A stretch of DNA of 64,000 nucleotides from an uncultured Elusimicrobia bacterium (GTDB taxonomy: Bacteria > Elusimicrobiota > Elusimicrobia > F11): contig CAYOPN010000003.1 of the NCBI GenBank assembly GCA_964405835.1, forward strand, positions 29,273 to 93,272. Direction: 5' to 3'. The notes under the pieces are model-generated. The model had not been told where the DNA came from and made no database searches. It saw nothing but the letters and a program-made list of their open reading frames with translations. The position numbers and the translations under genes were made by a program. Shown one piece after another: positions 5,154 through 59,361 of the stretch. Positions within the stretch are counted from its first letter, which is position 1; each line of letters begins with the position of its first letter.

Positions 5154-6043
5154 GCAGCCGGCCGCGCATCGTGGTATTTGCCTATTCGGAAGTGGGCCAT
5201 GCCTGTTTAAAAGCATTACTGGACCGCGGAGAAAACGTGGTCTGCGTTTATACGCATGAAGACAACCCGGATGAATCCCTTTGGTTTCCCTCAGTCGCCA
5301 AACTGGCGGCCGAGCATTCATTGCTGGTCCGGACGGAAGAATTATCGGGAGCTGATCGTCCCCCTTTCAGTTCCCACCGCCCGGACCTTATATTCTCGTT
5401 CTATTACCGGAACCTCATACCCAAATCCATTTTGGATTTGGCGCCGCTTGGAGCGTTCAACATGCACGGATCGCTTTTACCGCGCTACCGCGGGCGGGCC
5501 CCCATAAATTGGGCCGTGTTAAACGGCGAGGAAAAAACCGGCGCCACCTTACACGCCATGGTGGAAAAAGCCGATGCCGGCGATATCGTGGATCAGGAAG
5601 CGGTCGACATCGGTCCAGACGATACGGCTGCAACAGTCCAATCCCGGGTCACAAAGGCCGCGGTGACCGTGTTGGTTCGCCAACTGGAAAATTTGAAATC
5701 AGGCCGCGCGCCGCGCATCCCGCAAGACTCCTCCAAAGCCACGGTGTTCGGACGCCGCCGGCCCGAAGATGGCTCCATCAACTGGAATTGGCCGGCCAAA
5801 CGTGTCCACGATTTGGTGCGCGCTGTTTCGCGTCCCTACCCCGGGGCTTTCGGAATGATCAACGGGGGAAAATTTCGAATCTGGAAGTCTCAGCTAACCA
5901 ACGAAACGGCGATCGTTAAAAACCCCGGCATGGTCCAGGTTCGGGAAAAACAGACCTTTGTCACTTGTGGAGACGGAAAACTTTTGGAAATTATTGAAAT
6001 GCAAAAGGAGCCAATCAATGAAAGTATTAATACTCGGCGTTAA
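5150..6043 (+). CDS. arnA: UDP-4-amino-4-deoxy-L-arabinose formyltransferase (ArnA N-terminal domain as a separate ORF)
   Basis: [19 protein letters not shown]...[10 protein letters not shown]...[22 protein letters not shown]...[13 protein letters not shown] matches the E. coli ArnA formyltransferase domain; stop TAA at 6041-6043. Confidence 0.8.
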
Positions 6044-7064
6044 CGGATTTATCGGGAACGCCCTCACCGAACGGATTTTGACCACGACGAATTGGGAGGT
6101 GTACGGCCTCGACGTCGGTTCCGACAAAATCAAACCGTTCCTAACCAACCCGCGCTTCCGTTATTTGGAAGGCGACATTTCTATTAATAAGGAATGGACC
6201 GAATACCACGTCAAAAAAGCGGATGTCGTACTCCCGCTCGTGGCCATTGCAACGCCGGCGGCCTATGTTGAGAGACCGCTCGAAGTGTTCCAGCTCGACT
6301 TCGAGGAAAACCTGCGCATCATCAAGCAGTGCGTAAAATACAAGAAGCGACTGGTATTCCCTTCCACGTCCGAAGTCTACGGCATGTGCCCCGATGAGGA
6401 GTTCGACGAAGAAGTCTCGAACATGGTCTATGGCCCCATCCACAAACAGCGCTGGATTTATTCCTGCTCGAAACAACTGCTTGACCGCGTCATTTACGCG
6501 TTCGGCCAATCCGAAGGGCTGCGGTTCACGTTATTTCGTCCATTCAACTGGATCGGCCCGAACCTGGACAACATCGACGCGCCGAAAGAAGGTTCGTCAC
6601 GGGTGCTCACGCAGTTCCTCCACAATATTCTCTATAAACAGCCGATCAAATTGGTCGACGGCGGCACGCAACGGCGTTGCTTCACTTATATTTCCGACGG
6701 CGTGGACGCGTTGATGAAAATTCTCGTGAACGAGAAGAAATGCGCGGACGGCCAGATTTTTAACATCGGCAATCCGGACAACGATTTTTCGATCAAGGAC
6801 TTGGCGGAAAAACTGATCGCGGCCGTTGCCAAATACCCGGGATACGAAGACCTGGCGGCCAAAGCGAAGATCGTCCCTATGCATTCGGACGCCTATTACG
6901 GGCTGGGATATCAAGACATCATGACGCGCAAGCCATCGCTGCGCCACATTCGCCACACGCTCGGATGGCAGCCACAGGTTTCCATGGACGAGGCCCTGGC
7001 GAAAACGCTGGACTTCTACCTCAAGAACCGGAAACCGGGCGTCCGCTCTCACGCGACCGTATGA
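6018..7064 (+). CDS. arnA: UDP-glucuronic acid decarboxylase/dehydrogenase (ArnA C-terminal domain as a separate ORF)
   Basis: [21 protein letters not shown]...[18 protein letters not shown]...[11 protein letters not shown]...[10 protein letters not shown] matches E. coli ArnA 317-660. Start ATG 6018 preceded by AAGGAG; overlaps the FT ORF by 26 nt. Confidence 0.8.
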
Positions 7065-33073: not shown

Positions 33074-33948
33074 GCGTGGACTTTAATAAGCCGTACCTTG
33101 TTTATCAAGACGCAGATGAGCAAGACCACCGCGAAAACCGCCACATTGGTGGGTCCCAACGGAAGGTCATAGTGATACGAGACATAGAAACCAGCCAGCC
33201 CACTGAATCCTCCCACCAGCGACGAAGCCAGGAAAAAACCCGGCATCCGTCGACAAAAACGCCGCACCGCGAGCGGAGGGATCACAAAAGCCGCGAACGT
33301 CAACATGGGTCCCGCAATCAGCACCCCGAGGGAAATGGCGATACCAATGATGGAATAAAGCAGCACATCCCATGCGGCGACATTTTTACCGATGGTCCGC
33401 GCGAAATCCCGGTCAAACGACACCATCAAGAGCGACCGGTGCGCCACCAGAAGGACCCCGGTCAACAACGCGAACGCCGAAAGCAGCAACGTCAAATCGC
33501 TGGCGCCGACCGTCACGATTTCCCCCTGCAACAGACCCAGGAGTTCTATTTTTCCCGATGGATTTTTGGCCACCAGCAAAATGGCCAGCGCGGAAGCCAC
33601 CGAATAAAACGCGCCGATGCGGTTTTGAACGGCCCCGTCTCCTTTTCTTTCAAGAATCGCCAAGATCAAGAGAGCACCAAGCGTAAACAATAGCGAACCC
33701 GCCAGGGCCGCGAACCGGTCGTTCACTTCGCCCGGATGCAGCGACCAGTGGACCCCCATTCCCTGCAGGAAAAACGCGAAGGCAATGCCAGCCGCCGAGA
33801 TTTGCGGGAGCGCAACGCCCATGAGCACCATGCGGCGCAACATGAAATAAACACCGATCAACGGGCAGAAGAAACCGACCGCCACGCTGCCCCAAAGCGC
33901 ATGCCGCAAAATAAAACCATGTTCAAACAACTGGAAGAAATCACTCAT
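33070..33948 (-). CDS. znuB: Metal (Zn/Mn) ABC transporter permease, ABC-3 family
   Basis: Multi-TM permease typical of ZnuB/TroC-type; sits between the ATPase and downstream genes. Confidence 0.75.
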   Translation of the reverse strand: MSDFFQLFEHGFILRHALWGSVAVGFFCPLIGVYFMLRRMVLMGVALPQISAAGIAFAFFLQGMGVHWSLHPGEVNDRFAALAGSLLFTLGALLILAILERKGDGAVQNRIGAFYSVASALAILLVAKNPSGKIELLGLLQGEIVTVGASDLTLLLSAFALLTGVLLVAHRSLLMVSFDRDFARTIGKNVAAWDVLLYSIIGIAISLGVLIAGPMLTFAAFVIPPLAVRRFCRRMPGFFLASSLVGGFSGLAGFYVSYHYDLPLGPTNVAVFAVVLLICVLINKVRLIKVHA

Positions 33949-34550
33949 GGCTGGCCCAACGAAAGGGTCTTTTTGGCATAACGTTTGAGCAGCGGGATTT
34001 TGTGGGAGACCAGCACAATGGCGAGGTTGTCCCGGGTGTTTAACTCCGCCAGCATGTCCATGATTTCTTGCTCCGCCACCGCATCCACGCCAGACGTGGG
34101 TTCGTCCAGCACCAACACACGCGGCGCGACCGCCAGCGCGCGTGCGATCAGTACCCGTTGCTGTTGGCCGCCGGATAACGCCGCGTAGGATGCATCGATG
34201 TGCGGCGCCATTTTGACCTTCTCAAGGAACGTCAGCACGATCGCGCGTTCCGGCGCGGAACCCGTGAGACTCATGCGCACCACATCAAACACCGTGAGCG
34301 GATAAAGCGGGTCCAATTGCCCGCGCTGTGGGACATATCCGATTCGATTCGCCATCTCGGGATAACGCGTCACTTGGCCCCGCAACGGCTTGAGCAAACC
34401 CAAGATCCCTTTCATCAATGTGGTCTTGCCGGAACCGTTTTCTCCGACGATACCGAGGAAATCGCCCTCGTTGATGACCAGGTCAAAGTCCGATAGGACG
34501 ACGTTTGGCCCGTAACCGAACGAGGTTTTTTGAAGTGATAAGAGTTCTAT
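33945..34550 (-). CDS. znuC: Metal ABC transporter ATP-binding protein; canonical start codon not found
   Basis: Reading upstream of the track start (34418) in frame: (I)ELLSLQKTSFGYGPNVVLSDFDLVINEGDFLGIVGENGSGKTTL (N-terminus with Walker A). Only ATA/CTG/TTG candidates; an in-frame TGA lies a few codons upstream, inside znuA's last codons. Confidence 0.65.
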   Translation of the reverse strand: MELLSLQKTSFGYGPNVVLSDFDLVINEGDFLGIVGENGSGKTTLMKGILGLLKPLRGQVTRYPEMANRIGYVPQRGQLDPLYPLTVFDVVRMSLTGSAPERAIVLTFLEKVKMAPHIDASYAALSGGQQQRVLIARALAVAPRVLVLDEPTSGVDAVAEQEIMDMLAELNTRDNLAIVLVSHKIPLLKRYAKKTLSLGQP

Positions 34551-53568: not shown

Positions 53569-54726
53569 TTATATCTCCATGAGCAGCCTTTGCATGTCTC
53601 TATCGGAAACGAAGCGCCGGGTGTCGGCGAATATTTTGAATTTCCGGAAGAACGTCTCAAAATTCTCTTGTGACATTCTATAACCGAGTTGGCGGATTTT
53701 AGTTTCCAGGGCCCTTCGTCCGCTACGGTTGGTGAGCGGCAAGGAAGTTCCCGGCGCGCCCACGTCTTCGGCACGCATGATCTCATAGGTGGAGCGATTT
53801 TTCAGCATGCCGTCTTGATGGATGCCCGATCCGTGCGAGAACGCGTTTCCGCCAACGACCGCCTTGTTGGCCGGCACGGCCATGTTCATGGCGCGCGCCA
53901 CCATTTGACTGGTCGCATAGAGTTCCGGCGTGTTCACGGTGGTGCGCCGACCGAAGAAGTCCGCGCGGGTCTTGAGCGCCATAACGACCTCCTCCAGAGA
54001 ACAGTTGCCGGCCCTCTCTCCCACGCCGTTTACGGTGCAATCGATTTGTTCCACTCCCGCCCGCACCGCAGCCAACGAATTGGCGACCGCCATGCCCAGA
54101 TCGTCATGGCAATGGACGGACAACCGCGCGTGACAGATATTCCGAACATTGGTTTGCAGATAACGGATGAGCCCCACGAATTCATCGGGCGTCGCGTAAC
54201 CGACCGTATCGGCCACGTTGATCGTGGTTGCGCCCGCGTCGATGACCGCCTCGACCATTTGCGCCAAGTAGGCGCGGTCCGCGCGTGAGGCGTCTTCCGG
54301 CGTGAATTGAACGTCGGCGACAAACGATTTGGCGAACGCCACGCCTTTCACGGCCTGTTCCAACGCTTCGTCACGCGATTTGCGGAGTTTGTGTTCCAGG
54401 TGGATGTCAGAAGAAGCAATGAATACGTGGATCCGCCGGCGGTGCGCGGGTTCGATCGCCTGCCAACAGGCCTCGATGTCTTTGTCCACACAGCGCCCAA
54501 ACGCGGTGATGACCGGCGCGTTCTCAGCGCGCCCCACCGTTTCGGCGATTTTGCGGACCGCGCCCAACTCGGCCGGCGATGAGACCGGGAACCCGGCCTC
54601 GATGGCGTCGACTCCCAGTTTGTGCAATTGCTTCGCGATCGCGAGCTTCTGCTCCGGCCTCAAATGACAACCCGGCGCCTGCTCCCCATCTCTTAACGTT
54701 GTGTCCGATACGAATACCTTCTCCAT
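53569..54726 (-). CDS. 2-isopropylmalate/homocitrate/citramalate synthase family enzyme (HMGL-like, short form without LeuA regulatory domain)
   Basis: TTLRDGEQAPG...; HCHDDLGMAVANSLAAVRAGV...; DCTVNGVGERAGN. Confidence 0.8.
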   Translation of the reverse strand: MEKVFVSDTTLRDGEQAPGCHLRPEQKLAIAKQLHKLGVDAIEAGFPVSSPAELGAVRKIAETVGRAENAPVITAFGRCVDKDIEACWQAIEPAHRRRIHVFIASSDIHLEHKLRKSRDEALEQAVKGVAFAKSFVADVQFTPEDASRADRAYLAQMVEAVIDAGATTINVADTVGYATPDEFVGLIRYLQTNVRNICHARLSVHCHDDLGMAVANSLAAVRAGVEQIDCTVNGVGERAGNCSLEEVVMALKTRADFFGRRTTVNTPELYATSQMVARAMNMAVPANKAVVGGNAFSHGSGIHQDGMLKNRSTYEIMRAEDVGAPGTSLPLTNRSGRRALETKIRQLGYRMSQENFETFFRKFKIFADTRRFVSDRDMQRLLMEI

Positions 54727-54761
54727 GATCTTTTCCTTACCATCGCCACGGAGGGGTCCCT

Positions 54762-54797
54762 AAAAATAAAAAAACCCATCCGCGTAGCGAATGGGTT
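54762..54797 (-). terminator. Intrinsic terminator in the leader of the leuA-family gene (attenuator candidate)
   Basis: Minus strand: AAACCCAUUCGC-UAC-GCGGAUGGGUUU then UUUUUAUUUUUAG, ~36 nt before the ATG. Confidence 0.5.
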
Positions 54798-54830
54798 TGT
54801 TTGATTGTTCAGCTTTGTTTTATCTGTGCT

Positions 54831-54920
54831 TTACGCAGCCACAACGAACCCATTTCCACGGCCAATAAGGGCGAGGATCGGTAGAAGGTTCGTATTAATA
54901 AGGTGGTTTACGTTAAACAT
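54831..54920 (-). CDS. Candidate 29-aa leader peptide rich in Leu/Ile/Val codons (MFNVNHLINTNLLPILALIGRGNGFVVAA)
   Basis: ATG at 54920 (weak AGGT upstream). 5 Leu (CTT x3, CTA, CTC) + 3 Ile + 3 Val. GGAAATGGGTTCG in its 3' end can pair with the terminator's 5' arm AAACCCATTCGC (antiterminator). Confidence 0.35.
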   Translation of the reverse strand: MFNVNHLINTNLLPILALIGRGNGFVVAA

Positions 54921-55055
54921 CGACGGAAACCTAGCAAAATGCGAGGAAGAGAAGCAAACCCTCTTTTTTTTCCTCCTTTAGATGTAACCTCCGGCCCGCA
55001 CCCGGCGTATTGGGAGCTGAGAGGTGTGATTTAAATCAACAAAAAGGGGCTATTA

Positions 55056-55430
55056 ATGAAAAAGCTGAATAAGTTAATGACCGCGGCCATCGCGGGCATT
55101 ATGAGCGCGTCGTTTGCGGGATCCACGCTGCAGGCCGAAGAGGCCAAAGCGAAGGACGCAAAACCGGCGGCCGAAAAACACGCCTGCAAAGGCGAACATG
55201 GTTGTAAAGGCGACCACGCCTGCAAAGGCAAAGGCGCTTGTAAAGGCGAGCACGGATGCAAAGGCAAAGACGGCTGCAAGGGCCATAAGAAAGACCACAA
55301 GTGCGAAGACATGTGCTCGAAAGAGTGCTGTGTTAAGGCCCGCGGCGCTGAGAAGAAAGGCAGCGATGCTTGCAACGGCCCAAACGGCTGCGGCGGGAAA
55401 AATAGCTGTGGTGGAAAAGAAAAGAAATAA
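55056..55430 (+). CDS. Secreted Cys/His/Lys-rich small protein with (H/G)(A/G)CKG repeats: putative RiPP precursor for the downstream MNIO enzyme (bufferin-like)
   Basis: Sec signal MKKLNKLMTAAIAGIMSASFAGSTLQA; core HACKGEHGCKGDHACKGKGACKGEHGCKGKDGCKGHKKDHKCEDMCSKECC...ACNGPNGCGGKNSCGG (13 Cys). Confidence 0.6.
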   Translation: MKKLNKLMTAAIAGIMSASFAGSTLQAEEAKAKDAKPAAEKHACKGEHGCKGDHACKGKGACKGEHGCKGKDGCKGHKKDHKCEDMCSKECCVKARGAEKKGSDACNGPNGCGGKNSCGGKEKK

Positions 55431-56292
55431 AAAAGATTCTTCACTGGGGGTCGGTTTAGGCCTCCGGACGGTGCATTACAAGCACATCCTAAAGCACCGT
55501 CCGGGGGTCCCCTGGTTTGAGATCATTTCCGAGAACTACATGGGCAACACCGCCGGTTCCGGCGGGCGCTCCGTGCAGGTTCTCGATGAAATCCGTAAAG
55601 ATTATCCCGTTGTCATGCACGGGGTTTCCCTCTCCATTGGGTCGAAAGACCCCCTCGATTTTGATTATTTGAAACGCCTGAAGCGCTTGGCCAGCCGGAT
55701 CGAGCCAATGTGGATGTCCGATCATTTGTGCTGGACCGGCGTGAACGGCCACAATTTGCACGATCTTTTGCCGCTCCCCTACACGAAAGAAACCATCGAC
55801 CATCTGGTCTCCCGCATCTCGCAAATCCAAGATTTTCTCGGCCGGCAAATCCTTATGGAAAATGTTTCCAGCTACGTTTCGTATGAACATTCGGAGATGA
55901 CCGAATGGCAATGCCTGACCGAAGTCGCCCAAAAGGCCGACTGCTTGGTGCTGTTGGACGTGAACAACATCCATGTGAGCGCCGTGAACCATAAATTTGA
56001 CGCCGTGGAATTTATAAACGGCATCCCGAAAGACCGCGTGGGTCAATTCCATCTGGCCGGTTACTCCGACATGGGCACGCACTTGATCGACACCCACGAC
56101 CATCCGGTGTCCGATCCCGTTTGGAAACTTTACGCGAAGGCCGTGGAGCGCTTCGGCGCCGTGCCGACATTGATCGAATGGGACGACAACATTCCCCCCT
56201 TCAAACGGCTCTGGCAGGAAGCACAACACGCTGAGAAAATCCAAAAGAAACACCTCTCCCATGCCGACAACCAACGCACCGTCCTTATCTGA
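55366..56292 (+). CDS. MNIO family enzyme (DUF692, MbnB/BufB-like TIM-barrel); start codon uncertain
   Basis: LGVGLGLRTVHYKHIL...VPWFEIISENYM...MHGVSLSIGS...LIEWDD pattern typical of DUF692. Only in-frame ATG is 55366 (overlaps precursor by 65 nt); otherwise non-ATG start near 55444 (CTG) or 55471 (GTG). Confidence 0.7.
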   Translation: MLATAQTAAAGKIAVVEKKRNKKDSSLGVGLGLRTVHYKHILKHRPGVPWFEIISENYMGNTAGSGGRSVQVLDEIRKDYPVVMHGVSLSIGSKDPLDFDYLKRLKRLASRIEPMWMSDHLCWTGVNGHNLHDLLPLPYTKETIDHLVSRISQIQDFLGRQILMENVSSYVSYEHSEMTEWQCLTEVAQKADCLVLLDVNNIHVSAVNHKFDAVEFINGIPKDRVGQFHLAGYSDMGTHLIDTHDHPVSDPVWKLYAKAVERFGAVPTLIEWDDNIPPFKRLWQEAQHAEKIQKKHLSHADNQRTVLI

Positions 56293-57106
56293 TCTCCAAG
56301 CCTGGATGAAGTGGGTGATCATGCACCCGCAAGGGGCCTCCTTTGCCCTGAAAAAACCGCACGCGCTCACGCGCCTGTGCGTGCCCGTGATCGGGCAAAC
56401 CGCCGAGGTGCCGCGTGAGGAACGCCTTTCCATATATGGGACCGCGTATTTTCTGCGGATACTAGGCGCGCTCGCGTCAAATTTTAGCGCTGTCAAAAAC
56501 ACAGCCGGCGAAAAGGCGTTCAACCAAGCAGCTCGCGCATATCTCGTGAAATTTCCTTCTAAATACAAAAGCATCGACGATATCGGCGCGGAACTGCCCT
56601 CTTTTTTGAGACGGCGCCCGCTTTCCAAGAAATATCCTTTTCTTTCCGACCTCGCCGCGCTGGATTGGGCTGCGCACCGCGCTTTTTTTGCGGATGACGA
56701 ACCAGCCATGGACCGCAAAAGGTTGGCGGGCCTTTCCGGACGGACCTGGGCCAACGCCGTTTTTCATTTGGACCCCTCCACGCGATTGCTGGACCTCTCT
56801 TGGCCGGTGGCGGACCTATGGAAGGACGACGGGCTATGGCCTGCACGACGGCTCCGTTCATTAAAACCGGAACGCCAATGCGCGCTTGTTTTCCGGCGGT
56901 CCGACAAAAAGGTGCGGGTCCGTATACTGGAGCCAGCGCAATATGACGTGCTGGACCAGCTCGACCGCGGCCATACTTTCCAAAAAGCGCTGCTCTTTAT
57001 TTCCAAGAAACATTTCTCAAAGGAAGCCACGCCCCCAATCGGCGCGTGGTTCGAGCAATGGACGGCCGACGGCCTCTTTTCTCGGATCGACATTCCCTCA
57101 AGATGA
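56261..57106 (+). CDS. DUF2063-family protein (MbnC/BufC-like partner of MNIO enzymes)
   Basis: ERLSIYGTAYFLRILGALA and LSDLAALDWAAHRAFFADD resemble conserved DUF2063 blocks; 32-nt overlap with the DUF692 gene. Confidence 0.7.
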   Translation: MPTTNAPSLSDLQAWMKWVIMHPQGASFALKKPHALTRLCVPVIGQTAEVPREERLSIYGTAYFLRILGALASNFSAVKNTAGEKAFNQAARAYLVKFPSKYKSIDDIGAELPSFLRRRPLSKKYPFLSDLAALDWAAHRAFFADDEPAMDRKRLAGLSGRTWANAVFHLDPSTRLLDLSWPVADLWKDDGLWPARRLRSLKPERQCALVFRRSDKKVRVRILEPAQYDVLDQLDRGHTFQKALLFISKKHFSKEATPPIGAWFEQWTADGLFSRIDIPSR

Positions 57107-58008
57107 AATACCTCATTCTCATTTCCTTGCTTATTGGCGGCATAGTTCTGTCCGGTTGCGTCACCTCGATTGGCCTCAAAGTCCTCTACCGCGAAGCGCC
57201 GCTGGCCCCTTCGCAAATAACCAAAAACATTTGTTACGAATCCGACGGCGAATGCAAAAATTCCCGCCACCATTTGGATTTGTACGCGCCGGACGGCAAA
57301 GATTGGCCGGTCATGATCTTTGTTCACGGCGGAGGGTGGAACAGCGGCGATAAAGATTTAAAAGTAAAAAAAGCCGACGTGTACGCAAATATCGGCCGGT
57401 ATTACGCGGCGCGGGGAATCGGCGTGGCCGTGATCAATTACGGACTTCAACCCGGTGTGACATGGGACCGGCAGGTGGCGGATGTGGAATCGGCCGTCGC
57501 CTGGGTTCGGGCCAATATTCAAGACCGCGGCGGAAACCCCGATCAGGTCTTTCTGATGGGCCATTCAGCGGGCGCGTACCTGGCTTCTTACGCGGCACTG
57601 CGGTTGAGCCAGAATGAAAAAACGCCCTATCTTCGCGGCGTGATTGCGGTTAGCGGGGCGGCACTCGATATGGTCGACCAGAAAACGTACGAAATGGGCG
57701 AACGCGTGGAATACTACCAGCAGCGTTTCCAGGGGTCTGACACGACCGAAAACTGGAAAAAAGACGCTTCTCCGTCCTATCAAGCCACCAAAAACGCTCC
57801 GCCTTTTCTAATCATTTATGGGGGCAAGGAAAAAGTGACTTTACAGCGTCAATCGCTGCTTTTAAACAACGCAATTAGCGAAAAAGGGGTGCCTTGCCGG
57901 GTCATAAAAGAGCCCGGGCAATATCATTCTTGGATGGTATTGGCTTTAACGCGTGAGGACCGGATGTCCGCCCCGGCCGTGGTGGAATTTATTCGCGGAT
58001 CAATTTAG
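57103..58008 (+). CDS. Lipoprotein alpha/beta-hydrolase (esterase/lipase, HGGG + GHSAG), translationally coupled to DUF2063
   Basis: Lipobox LSGC; VMIFVHGGGW; LMGHSAGAY nucleophile elbow; ATGA overlap with the upstream gene. Confidence 0.7.
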   Translation: MKYLILISLLIGGIVLSGCVTSIGLKVLYREAPLAPSQITKNICYESDGECKNSRHHLDLYAPDGKDWPVMIFVHGGGWNSGDKDLKVKKADVYANIGRYYAARGIGVAVINYGLQPGVTWDRQVADVESAVAWVRANIQDRGGNPDQVFLMGHSAGAYLASYAALRLSQNEKTPYLRGVIAVSGAALDMVDQKTYEMGERVEYYQQRFQGSDTTENWKKDASPSYQATKNAPPFLIIYGGKEKVTLQRQSLLLNNAISEKGVPCRVIKEPGQYHSWMVLALTREDRMSAPAVVEFIRGSI

Positions 58009-58323
58009 GAAGGAACAGAGATATTCGGCGAGACCGGATTCGACTTTGATGTCGAACGAAGACTTTCCCGGCACATGAAACGTCTGCCCGCCGTTGTACG
58101 TCTTCCAATCTTTTTCGCCCGCCAACAACACGCGGCACGTTCCGGAAACAACATCCATTTGCTCGGGAGCATCGGTGTTGAAGTGGTAACTGCCGGGACG
58201 GATGATGCCGATGGTCTTCTTCGTTCCGTCCGGAAAAATCACGCTGTGGCTGACCACGCCGCCGTCGAAATAGACGTTGGCCTTTAAAGTTACGCTGACC
58301 TGGTCAAGTTTTGATGGGACCAC
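58000..58323 (-). CDS. ppnP: Pyrimidine/purine nucleoside phosphorylase (DUF1255/YaiE)
   Basis: ANVYFDGGVVSHSVIFPDGTKKTIGIIRPGSYHFNTDAPEQMDVVSGTCRVLLAGEKDWKTY aligns with E. coli PpnP. Confidence 0.8.
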   Translation of the reverse strand: MVPSKLDQVSVTLKANVYFDGGVVSHSVIFPDGTKKTIGIIRPGSYHFNTDAPEQMDVVSGTCRVLLAGEKDWKTYNGGQTFHVPGKSSFDIKVESGLAEYLCSFLN

Positions 58324-59361
58324 TCAGAACTCCTCGCTGAATACCACGTCGCCCGTCACGCCCACCTGGTAGGCCGACACGCGCCGCTCAAAGAAGTTGG
58401 ACAGTTCCTGCACGTCCTGCAGTTCCATGAACGTAAATGGGTTCTTGGCTTCATAAATGGGATGAAGTCCGAGCGCGGAGAGCCGCCGGTCGGCCACGTA
58501 TTCAAGATATTGCCGCATGTCCTTGGCGGACATTCCGGCCACGCCCATCGACAACACGTCCTCGCCGAACGCCATCTCACAATCGACCGCTTCTTTCATC
58601 ATGGTGACGATCTGATCTTGAAGCTCAAAATCAAACAAACCCGGGTCTTCACGGCGCACCGTGTTGATCACTTCAAACGCAAAGTTGATGTGGCAGCTTT
58701 CATCGCGGAACACCCAGTTCGTTCCGGCCGCGAGCCCGTTCAACAAGCCTTTTGACCGCAAGAAATACACGTACGCAAACGCCGCAAAGAAGAACAGCCC
58801 TTCGATGCAACAGGCGAAGCAAATCAGGTTGAGAAGAAACTGTTTCTTATCGGCGGTCGTCCGGATTTCGGTGAGTTCTTGGATCGAAGCGATCCATTTG
58901 AAACAAAATTCGGCTTTTTTCTTGATGGCCGGGATGTTTTCGATGGCCTGAAAGGCCTTCTCGCGTTCGGCCGTGTCGGGAATGTAGGTGTCGAGCAATG
59001 TCAGGTAGAACTGCACGTGCAGCGCTTCCTCGTAAAGCTGGCGCGACAAATACATGCGCGCTTCCGGTGAATTGATGTGCGTATAGAGATTCAACACCAA
59101 GTTATTGGAGACAATCGAGTCGCCGGTCGCGAAGAACGCGACCAGACGGTGGATCAAATGCCGTTCCGCCTCGGTCAAACGCTGGGACAAGTCCGTTATG
59201 TCGGACGAAAAATCGACTTCGTCGACCGTCCAGGTGTTCTTGATGGCGGACTTGTACATCTCAAAGAAGACCGGGTACTTCATCGGCCTTAGATTGAGAT
59301 CAAAACCTCGGTCGAGAATCATTGGCAGGACTCGCAGCTCTCGGGATTTTCCAATGAGCAA
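58324..59361 (-). CDS. nrdB: Ribonucleoside-diphosphate reductase class I beta subunit
   Basis: Diiron/tyrosyl radical blocks (EEALHVQFY..., ...FFAAFAYVYFL..., ...RDESCHINFA...). Alternative start at 59322 makes an ATGA overlap with nrdA. Confidence 0.85.
   Translation of the reverse strand: MLIGKSRELRVLPMILDRGFDLNLRPMKYPVFFEMYKSAIKNTWTVDEVDFSSDITDLSQRLTEAERHLIHRLVAFFATGDSIVSNNLVLNLYTHINSPEARMYLSRQLYEEALHVQFYLTLLDTYIPDTAEREKAFQAIENIPAIKKKAEFCFKWIASIQELTEIRTTADKKQFLLNLICFACCIEGLFFFAAFAYVYFLRSKGLLNGLAAGTNWVFRDESCHINFAFEVINTVRREDPGLFDFELQDQIVTMMKEAVDCEMAFGEDVLSMGVAGMSAKDMRQYLEYVADRRLSALGLHPIYEAKNPFTFMELQDVQELSNFFERRVSAYQVGVTGDVVFSEEF

Follow-up and report, generated by a model that had tools for sequence, protein, structure and literature searches.

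What does a bacterium make when the gene for a small, cysteine-rich secreted protein runs directly into genes for an MNIO (DUF692) enzyme, a DUF2063 protein, and a lipoprotein esterase, and does the esterase belong to the pathway? The question is raised by four plus-strand genes within positions 55056-58008 of a 64,000-nt stretch of DNA (the window) from an uncultured Elusimicrobia bacterium (assembly GCA_964405835.1, contig CAYOPN010000003.1). The bufferins, a very large family that was described recently, are RiPPs (peptides made by the ribosome and modified afterward) that are secreted and chelate metals, and we think it very probable that this locus is a bufferin operon of the Buf2 type, bufA-bufB-bufC. 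The features of the operon, including the esterase gene at its end, are as follows:

54984-55009, plus strand: promoter-like motif of the extracytoplasmic function (ECF) sigmaF type, GTAACC-N16-CGTA, which ends 46 nt before the ATG of the precursor gene
55056-55430, plus strand: bufA-like precursor gene, 124 amino acids, with BufA2-like homologs
about 55056-55136, plus strand: signal peptide region of the precursor, with predicted cleavage after STLQA
55177-55283, plus strand: tandem repeat of 18 or 36 nt within the precursor gene, encoding a regular C-K-G-x-x-x hexapeptide array
55408-56292, plus strand: gene for an MNIO of the BufB type (GTG at 55408 or 55411 is the favored start, ATG at 55366 the alternative, and GTG at 55471 the public call)
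56261-57106, plus strand: gene for the DUF2063 partner (56.9 bits to PF09836, cutoff 27.2)
57103-58008, plus strand: gene for a lipoprotein alpha/beta-hydrolase of the acetyl-esterase/lipase type (PF20434, PF07859)

The MNIO identifies the family. It matches Pfam PF05114 (E = 1.4e-111) and covers the NCBIfam model for BufB (NF050167) from end to end (positions 1-262 of 262), scoring 385.6 bits (cutoff 310). It falls under the cutoffs of the HvfB model (261.9 bits, cutoff 360), the MbnB model (TIGR04159; 61 bits, cutoff 325), and the ApyH and ChrH models. Because the BufB cutoff was passed over the full length of the profile and the other four were not, we read the operon as a bufferin operon. 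The best match among solved structures, PDB 3BWW, is also a DUF692 protein. The DUF2063 gene overlaps the 3' end of the MNIO gene by 32 nt; its product has a weak match to NGO1945_C (E = 0.014) and scores below the cutoff of the HvfC equivalog model (58 bits, cutoff 142). An initial annotation, made from the sequence alone, had proposed a bufferin-type RiPP cluster that comprises an MNIO, a DUF2063 protein whose reading frame overlaps that of the MNIO, and a Sec-exported, cysteine-rich precursor, and these profile hidden Markov model (HMM) searches bear out both domain assignments and the cluster type.

The precursor was described there as a 124-residue protein with 13 cysteines and a Sec-like N-terminus, and we confirmed its coordinates, its cysteine positions, and its six CKG units. 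The N-terminus consists of MKKLNK, a hydrophobic stretch (LMTAAIAGIMSASFAG), and STLQA|EE, and is Sec-like by inspection: hydropathy peaks at 2.1 over residues 7-15, and the n, h, and c regions, like the LQA|EE site, were assigned by eye. The 97-residue core is 24% lysine, 19% glycine, 13% cysteine, and 6% histidine. The initial annotation went on to place the precursor outside the DUF2282 family and outside the six- and twelve-cysteine pattern, to call its CKG repeat atypical, and to see in it a distinct kind of precursor. The first two points stand, as a Pfam scan of the precursor gave no DUF2282 match (just a sub-threshold match to Collagen) and the cysteine spacing does differ from the pattern. 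The other two do not. The relatives of the precursor are BufA2-like, and the literature defines their family as Buf2, or BUF_6/12Cys (PMC11626156; PMC12452194), so CKG is a hallmark of the family.

The evidence for these relatives is as follows. In a search of 5.8 billion proteins, the precursor had 51 relatives at E ≤ 0.01 (best 5.5e-12), which are signal-peptide proteins made of CKGxNxCKGxGGC units. Ten of them were tested against the NCBIfam BufA2 model, and nine matched (E = 1.5e-3 to 4e-15), all at 18.7-55.8 bits and thus under its 60-bit cutoff; the tenth did not match. Against a profile built from its own relatives, the precursor scored 50.6 bits, whereas the best of 300 composition-preserving shuffles of its core reached 17.1; for the core alone, the scores were 24.0 and -2.3 bits. 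The similarity therefore depends on the order of the residues and is not merely compositional.

What is unusual about the precursor is the regular spacing of its first cysteines, which the tandem repeat would account for. The cysteines lie at residues 44, 50, 56, 62, 68, 74, 83, 87, 91, 92, 106, 112, and 118, so that the spacing is 6,6,6,6,6 and then 9,4,4,1,14,6,6; in a canonical domain it is 6,6,7,6,6. The regular part coincides with the DNA repeat at 55177-55283, which Tandem Repeats Finder reports either as an 18-nt unit in 5.9 copies (69% matches) or as a 36-nt unit in 2.6 copies (84% matches). This points to duplication, within the gene, of a unit of 12 residues and two cysteines. Regular runs of four to seven cysteines also occur in 10 of the other 51 matches, so variation in the length of the array is within the natural range of the family.

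A search with the MNIO gave 80 loci from one-genome-per-species contigs, most of them of the Buf1 type, and in 76 of the 80 an open reading frame (ORF) with at least six cysteines ends just upstream of the MNIO gene. By our reading, most of these 76 encode CKG proteins with signal peptides, of either the Buf1 or the Buf2 type. Only one of the 80 is close: L007, from an Elusimicrobiota metagenome-assembled genome, carries an MNIO with 81% identity to that of the window, and all others are at most 62% identical. The clade considered below comprises the window, L007, two metagenome contigs (L085 and L094), an assembly from the Sequence Read Archive (L088), and a fragment that carries the esterase (L093). 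The MNIOs of L007, L085, and L088 are 79-81% identical to the window's; the DUF2063 partners in L007, L085, L088, and L094 are 46-52% identical to the window's; and the 32-nt overlap of bufB and bufC is kept in L007 and L094. DUF2063 proteins this similar are few: database-wide, just ten were found at E ≤ 1e-20. Among metagenome contigs of the Joint Genome Institute, a first scan for DUF2063 relatives found none, and a scan with a two-sequence alignment found L085 and the distant L086 only. The 281-residue DUF2063 sequence itself is present in the public protein collection, and an exact contig look-up with it gave none.

At the orthologous position, L007, L085, L088, and L094 encode canonical, CKG-rich Buf2 precursors with 6+6(+3) cysteines. 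In these four loci, the signal peptides are nearly identical (MKKMxRMLTAAIAGIMGA...A|), and the mature proteins begin with (D/E)KHxCKG and end with (S/N)xACKGxNGC; the window's precursor shares the signal peptide, nearly unchanged, and the C-terminal tail. The first six and the last three cysteines of the window's precursor align with cysteines of these precursors. Since the sister precursors, which are longer than the window's, keep their canonical domains, the window's precursor is, on this alignment, a shortened and rearranged ortholog of a 12-cysteine Buf2 precursor. Another protein with a related appearance lies in a more distant locus: L082 encodes, at 6001-6345 (P0047), a stand-alone secreted protein of 114 residues with histidine-rich repeats of the DAHSCKGAEG type. 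Its CNSPSGCGGK tail resembles the C-terminus of the window's precursor, and the BufA2 model does not match it. A divergently transcribed MNIO-DUF2063-AhpC/Redoxin unit is found about 1 kb from it, with an ECF sigma gene nearby.

The clade also shares a promoter motif upstream of the operon, which is newly described here. In Caulobacter, buf1 and buf2 are driven by sigmaF from an experimentally derived site, GTAACC-N16-CGAA (PMC3511200). Over both strands of its 64 kb, the window has a single match to GTAACC-N16-CGTA (0.09 expected), and it lies at 54984-55009. L085 (791), L088 (2066), and L094 (3560) each contain GTAAC[CT]-N16-CGTA once, on the strand of the operon and just upstream of its first gene, and L007 has a degenerate version (GAATCC-N16-CGTA, at 2638) at the corresponding place. 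A background of 1.68 Mb of other loci gave nine matches, and by our reading of their coordinates four of these lie upstream of bufferin precursors in the alphaproteobacterial loci L032, L042, L062, and L080. The pattern supports control of the operon by an ECF sigma factor, insofar as conservation of a motif can indicate it. A scan of the region for sigma-70 promoters gave no excess over the shuffle expectation.

The genes around the operon vary among the clade loci. L085 and L094 have a superoxide dismutase-like gene and an ECF sigma gene directly after bufC, whereas in L007 the gene that follows runs the other way, with an ECF sigma gene further on; L007 and L085, unlike the window, also have a YyaL-like gene with a thioredoxin domain upstream. 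Neither the superoxide dismutase-like gene nor the YyaL-like gene has a counterpart in the window (tblastn, E 1e-3). The upstream protein, of 580-620 residues and with a thioredoxin fold (YyaL/DUF255-like by eye), is encoded directly before bufA, and its gene bears the promoter motif (L007 2575-4431; L085 824-2572). In L088 (2100-2659), this gene is split into two short ORFs and looks like a pseudogene.

Among characterized systems, the closest is the buf2 operon of Caulobacter vibrioides (BufA2-BufB2-BufC2), which, like the window, has a Sec-signal precursor with CKG-type cysteine motifs, the order precursor-MNIO-DUF2063, no DoxX, and a sigmaF-type promoter motif (PMC11626156; PMC3511200). 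The order bufABC is described as strictly conserved (PMC12452194). In Caulobacter, buf2 is induced by copper, and the central cysteines of its product show shifts of -4.03 Da (PMC11626156). Conversion of central cysteines to 5-thiooxazoles, together with copper binding, is known solely from Buf1 and Buf2 of this species (PMC11626156). The initial annotation had set the esterase in the place of DoxX. This is a false contrast: the founding buf2 operon has no DoxX (PMC11626156), and its lack is usual in Buf2 clusters. In no clade locus is bufC followed by a DoxX gene, and even in buf1 DoxX is dispensable for modification and function (PMC11626156). The window differs from Caulobacter buf2 in its 13 cysteines with 6,6,6,6,6 spacing and an irregular block, in a precursor below the BufA2 cutoff, in the overlap of the precursor and MNIO genes, and in the translationally coupled esterase.

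Other systems are further off. The Buf1 (DUF2282) operons, bufABCD, share the MNIO mega-cluster, the DUF2063 partner, and a signal-peptide CKG precursor, and have a role in copper stress (PMC11626156), but the window has no DUF2282 domain, no DoxX, and no adjacent pair of sigma and NrsF genes. HvfABC of Haemophilus influenzae, which makes oxazolins (Buf_EGKCG), also pairs a repeat-rich secreted cysteine protein with an MNIO and a DUF2063 protein (PMC11252979); the window's precursor has no EGKCG motif, and its enzymes are below the HvfB and HvfC cutoffs. Methanobactin biosynthesis (MbnABC) likewise uses an MNIO-family enzyme on cysteines of a ribosomal peptide to form a copper ligand. In the window, however, the MNIO is far from MbnB, there is no MbnA or MbnC, and the precursor carries a Sec signal in place of a leader peptide.

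Overall, we read the operon as Buf2 because it has the canonical bufABC order, BufA2-like relatives of its precursor, sister loci with Buf2 precursors, and the promoter motif. Several results count against this reading. The window's precursor itself scores 13.3 bits (E = 0.07) with the BufA2 model (NF050166), far under the cutoff of 60, and it departs from the canonical six- or twelve-cysteine pattern in lacking the 7-residue junction. The MNIO start is weakly supported, in that the best Shine-Dalgarno (SD) energy found there is at the weak end of the relatives' range (given below). The window has no ECF sigma gene akin to those of the clade loci (tblastn, E 1e-3). Finally, the members of the clade are known from their genes alone.

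If the operon works as its Caulobacter counterparts do, the pathway would run as follows. A sigmaF-type ECF sigma factor would drive transcription from the GTAACC-N16-CGTA motif under metal or envelope stress, and the 124-residue precursor would be produced in the cytoplasm. There, the MNIO, an iron enzyme, and its DUF2063 partner would oxidize some of the cysteines to 5-thiooxazoles, at a cost of 4 Da per cysteine. Sec would export the modified peptide, and signal peptidase would cut off the leader after STLQA. The mature peptide of about 97 residues, rich in lysine, histidine, and cysteine, would then act as a periplasmic chelator of copper and perhaps of other soft metals. We infer the thiooxazole chemistry, the Sec export, and the copper chelation by analogy with Buf1 and Buf2 of Caulobacter. 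The choice of cysteines to be modified, the metal specificity, and the inducing signal are likewise presumptive.

The esterase is the one element that could change this picture. It matches PF20434 (BD-FAE, E = 4.7e-29), PF07859 (Abhydrolase_3, E = 7.8e-23), and COesterase. An LSGC lipobox is present, as are the HGGG and GHSAG motifs, and the ATG of the esterase gene overlaps the TGA of the DUF2063 gene as ATGA, a 4-nt overlap. The earlier description of a coupled lipoprotein alpha/beta-hydrolase was thus correct, and the coupling recurs in two related genomes. In both L093, whose esterase is the closest (69% identical), and L088 (54%), the overlap with bufC is also 4 nt and the next gene is a convergent gene for PpnP, so that three of the six clade loci (the window, L088, and L093) have the arrangement bufC-esterase-PpnP, with PpnP on the minus strand. 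In the window, the esterase and PpnP genes overlap by 9 nt, at 58000-58008, which leaves no space for a terminator between them; in L088, they overlap by 4 nt.

One could suppose that the hydrolase is a fourth component of the pathway, which trims or cleaves the peptide or removes an acyl or ester group from it, so that the product differs from Buf2 of Caulobacter. Conservation of the overlap in three genomes, even though the esterases have diverged to 54-69% identity, agrees with this, as do the weak matches of the protein to Peptidase_S9; and with its motifs and lipobox intact, it would be found in the same compartment as the exported peptide. Yet three of the six clade loci (L007, L085, and L094) have no esterase, although their MNIOs are equally similar, and tblastn found none in the 80 genome-collection MNIO loci. 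The esterase family is large (369 proteins at E ≤ 1e-30), and five homologs with 52-57% identity lie in unrelated contexts. Because the PpnP neighbor is conserved alongside the esterase, inherited gene order explains the linkage equally well. Sec export and signal peptidase already cover the maturation of the peptide, and our literature searches found no link of DUF2063 or MNIO clusters to esterases and no esterase among the conserved genes of bufferin clusters. A search for papers that connect bufferins with Elusimicrobia gave nothing relevant either.

The precursors offer one more clue. Those of the window (HKKDHKCEDMCSKECC) and L088 (HKKGEKCDKGCC) share a segment rich in histidine and lysine with a C...CC motif, and the precursors of the esterase-free sister loci L007, L085, and L094 do not have it. 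In the window, the corresponding Cys-x-Cys-Cys block spans residues 83-92 (nt ~55302-55331) and reads KCEDMCSKECC; in L088, it reads KCDKGCC. That this segment tracks the esterase is a weak hint of function, with two loci against three being too few to infer more. We consider it unlikely that the hydrolase acts in the pathway. The fuller proposal, in which a small sub-lineage (the window, L088, and L093) recruited a periplasmic lipoprotein serine hydrolase while its precursor was remodeled into His/Lys-rich CKG arrays with the C...CC motif, is likewise unlikely. On the evidence of gene order, the esterase is most likely a lineage-specific, co-transcribed accessory gene or a hitchhiker rather than a core biosynthetic gene.

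A second possibility is that the genes are what they seem but the chemistry or the metal is different: the CKG array, with histidines at -2 or -3, and the C...CC motif might bind zinc, nickel, or another metal, or the product might carry oxazolone-thioamides. The core does have six histidines in 97 residues, and its EHGC and DHAC repeat contexts are not typical of canonical Buf2; many canonical Buf2 relatives, however, also have two to six histidines. Fusions of bufferins to MerC have been noted and imply roles beyond copper (PMC12452194). The assignment of thiooxazole as opposed to oxazolone-thioamide has been debated. Against a departure from bufferin chemistry, the MNIO is a full-length BufB equivalog that stays under the HvfB and MbnB cutoffs, and the precursor is free of EGKCG. 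The zinc genes nearest to the operon (ZnuA and ABC-3 genes at 33-35.5 kb) are about 20 kb from it. We judge this possibility quite unlikely.

The start of the MNIO gene needs separate treatment. In the initial annotation, the gene seemed to lack a canonical start; a pair of GTG codons, 55408 and 55411, had been overlooked. Both are in frame and 33-36 nt upstream of the conserved LGVGLGLR strand, and a gene beginning at either would share its first 20-23 nt with the precursor gene, within the last seven codons of the latter; the stop of the precursor gene is 13 nt before that strand. In the relatives, the called starts are 14-18 codons upstream of LGVGLGLR, and the MNIO gene has its own ATG or GTG and a GGAG-type SD sequence, with a spacer of 22-24 nt after the precursor's stop. 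The energies of the duplex with the anti-SD sequence are as follows:

GTG 55408/55411, plus strand: -5.5 kcal/mol
ATG 55366, plus strand: -3.7 kcal/mol
GTG 55471, plus strand: -3.4 kcal/mol
CTG 55444, plus strand: -0.9 kcal/mol, essentially no SD sequence
called MNIO starts of the relatives: -5.4 to -9.5 kcal/mol

The public protein collection holds one version of this MNIO, of 273 residues and starting from GTG 55471; an exact-sequence look-up found no record of the 308-residue protein from ATG 55366. In the alignment with 3BWW, GVGLGLR is matched from residue 5 of that structure onward. An MNIO that began at 55471 would therefore be without the first barrel strand, and the public start is probably mis-called. 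With GTG codons at 55408 and 55411, there is also no need to invoke recoding or a frameshift, and we rejected that explanation. An assembly error at the junction of the precursor and MNIO genes was rejected as well. A short contig from the European Nucleotide Archive (L001) matches the window over 1157 nt without gaps and with one mismatch (at 55653); because its junction is identical and has no indels, an assembly frameshift is unlikely. (On that contig, the MNIO is uncalled and a minus-strand ORF is annotated in its stead.) The simplest, if provisional, reading of these positions is that translation of the MNIO is coupled to that of the precursor and begins at GTG 55408 or 55411.

The altered junction might instead mean that the locus is decaying, the MNIO having lost its ancestral ATG and spacer, the second half of the precursor having degenerated (9,4,4,1,14 instead of a canonical block), and no modified peptide being made, which would also fit a public call without the LGVGLGLR strand; but this is highly improbable, since the MNIO ORF is intact, 79-81% identical to its relatives, and matched to the full BufB profile, the two GTG codons have moderate SD energies and are placed for coupling to the precursor, the DUF2063 gene with its 32-nt overlap and the promoter motif are intact, and the second contig is free of indels.

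The operon had been described as embedded among metal-homeostasis genes, which overstates the case: the genes cited are 3-22 kb away, and so we call this context loose. Besides the zinc genes, there is a Dps-type ferritin at 37.1 kb (18 kb away), and the supposed cysteine transporter at 49.2-51.9 kb (3-6 kb away) is an ABC transporter whose Pfam matches are just ABC_tran and BPD_transp_1. Between the ABC-3 permease and ZnuA, the ORF at 33945-34418 (minus strand) has 157 residues, a small size for a ZnuC-type ATPase; it could be truncated or begin at a different start. The immediate neighbors of the operon, all on the minus strand, are genes for an HMGL-like synthase and a pirin on the left and for PpnP and a ribonucleotide reductase on the right.

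An Rfam search of 54500-58400 for structured RNAs or riboswitches gave no matches at E ≤ 1. The divergent intergenic region of 329 nt between the HMGL-like gene and the operon contains two hairpins with T-runs, also without Rfam matches. The first, at 54772-54798, has a 12-bp stem with an A-run and T-rich flanks, looks bidirectional, and is 5' of the start of the HMGL-like gene (54726, minus strand). The second, at ~54943-54978 (GAGGAAGAG...CTCTTTTTTTTCCTCC), immediately precedes the promoter motif. Possible roles for the two are those of insulating terminators, or of a leader or attenuator for the leuA-like gene.

As a Buf2-type operon, the locus extends the bufferins to a poorly studied phylum and illustrates how their precursors diversify through tandem duplication within the gene. 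The conserved motif suggests, from its position and sequence, that the sigmaF-type promoter logic of Caulobacter is conserved across phyla. A functional coupling of the esterase would make this the first bufferin pathway in which a hydrolase carries out a tailoring step, and the clade would then include a bufferin subclass in which an esterase processes the product further after export, perhaps with another metal preference. Otherwise, the locus is mainly a correction to annotation, of the MNIO start and of the family to which the precursor belongs.

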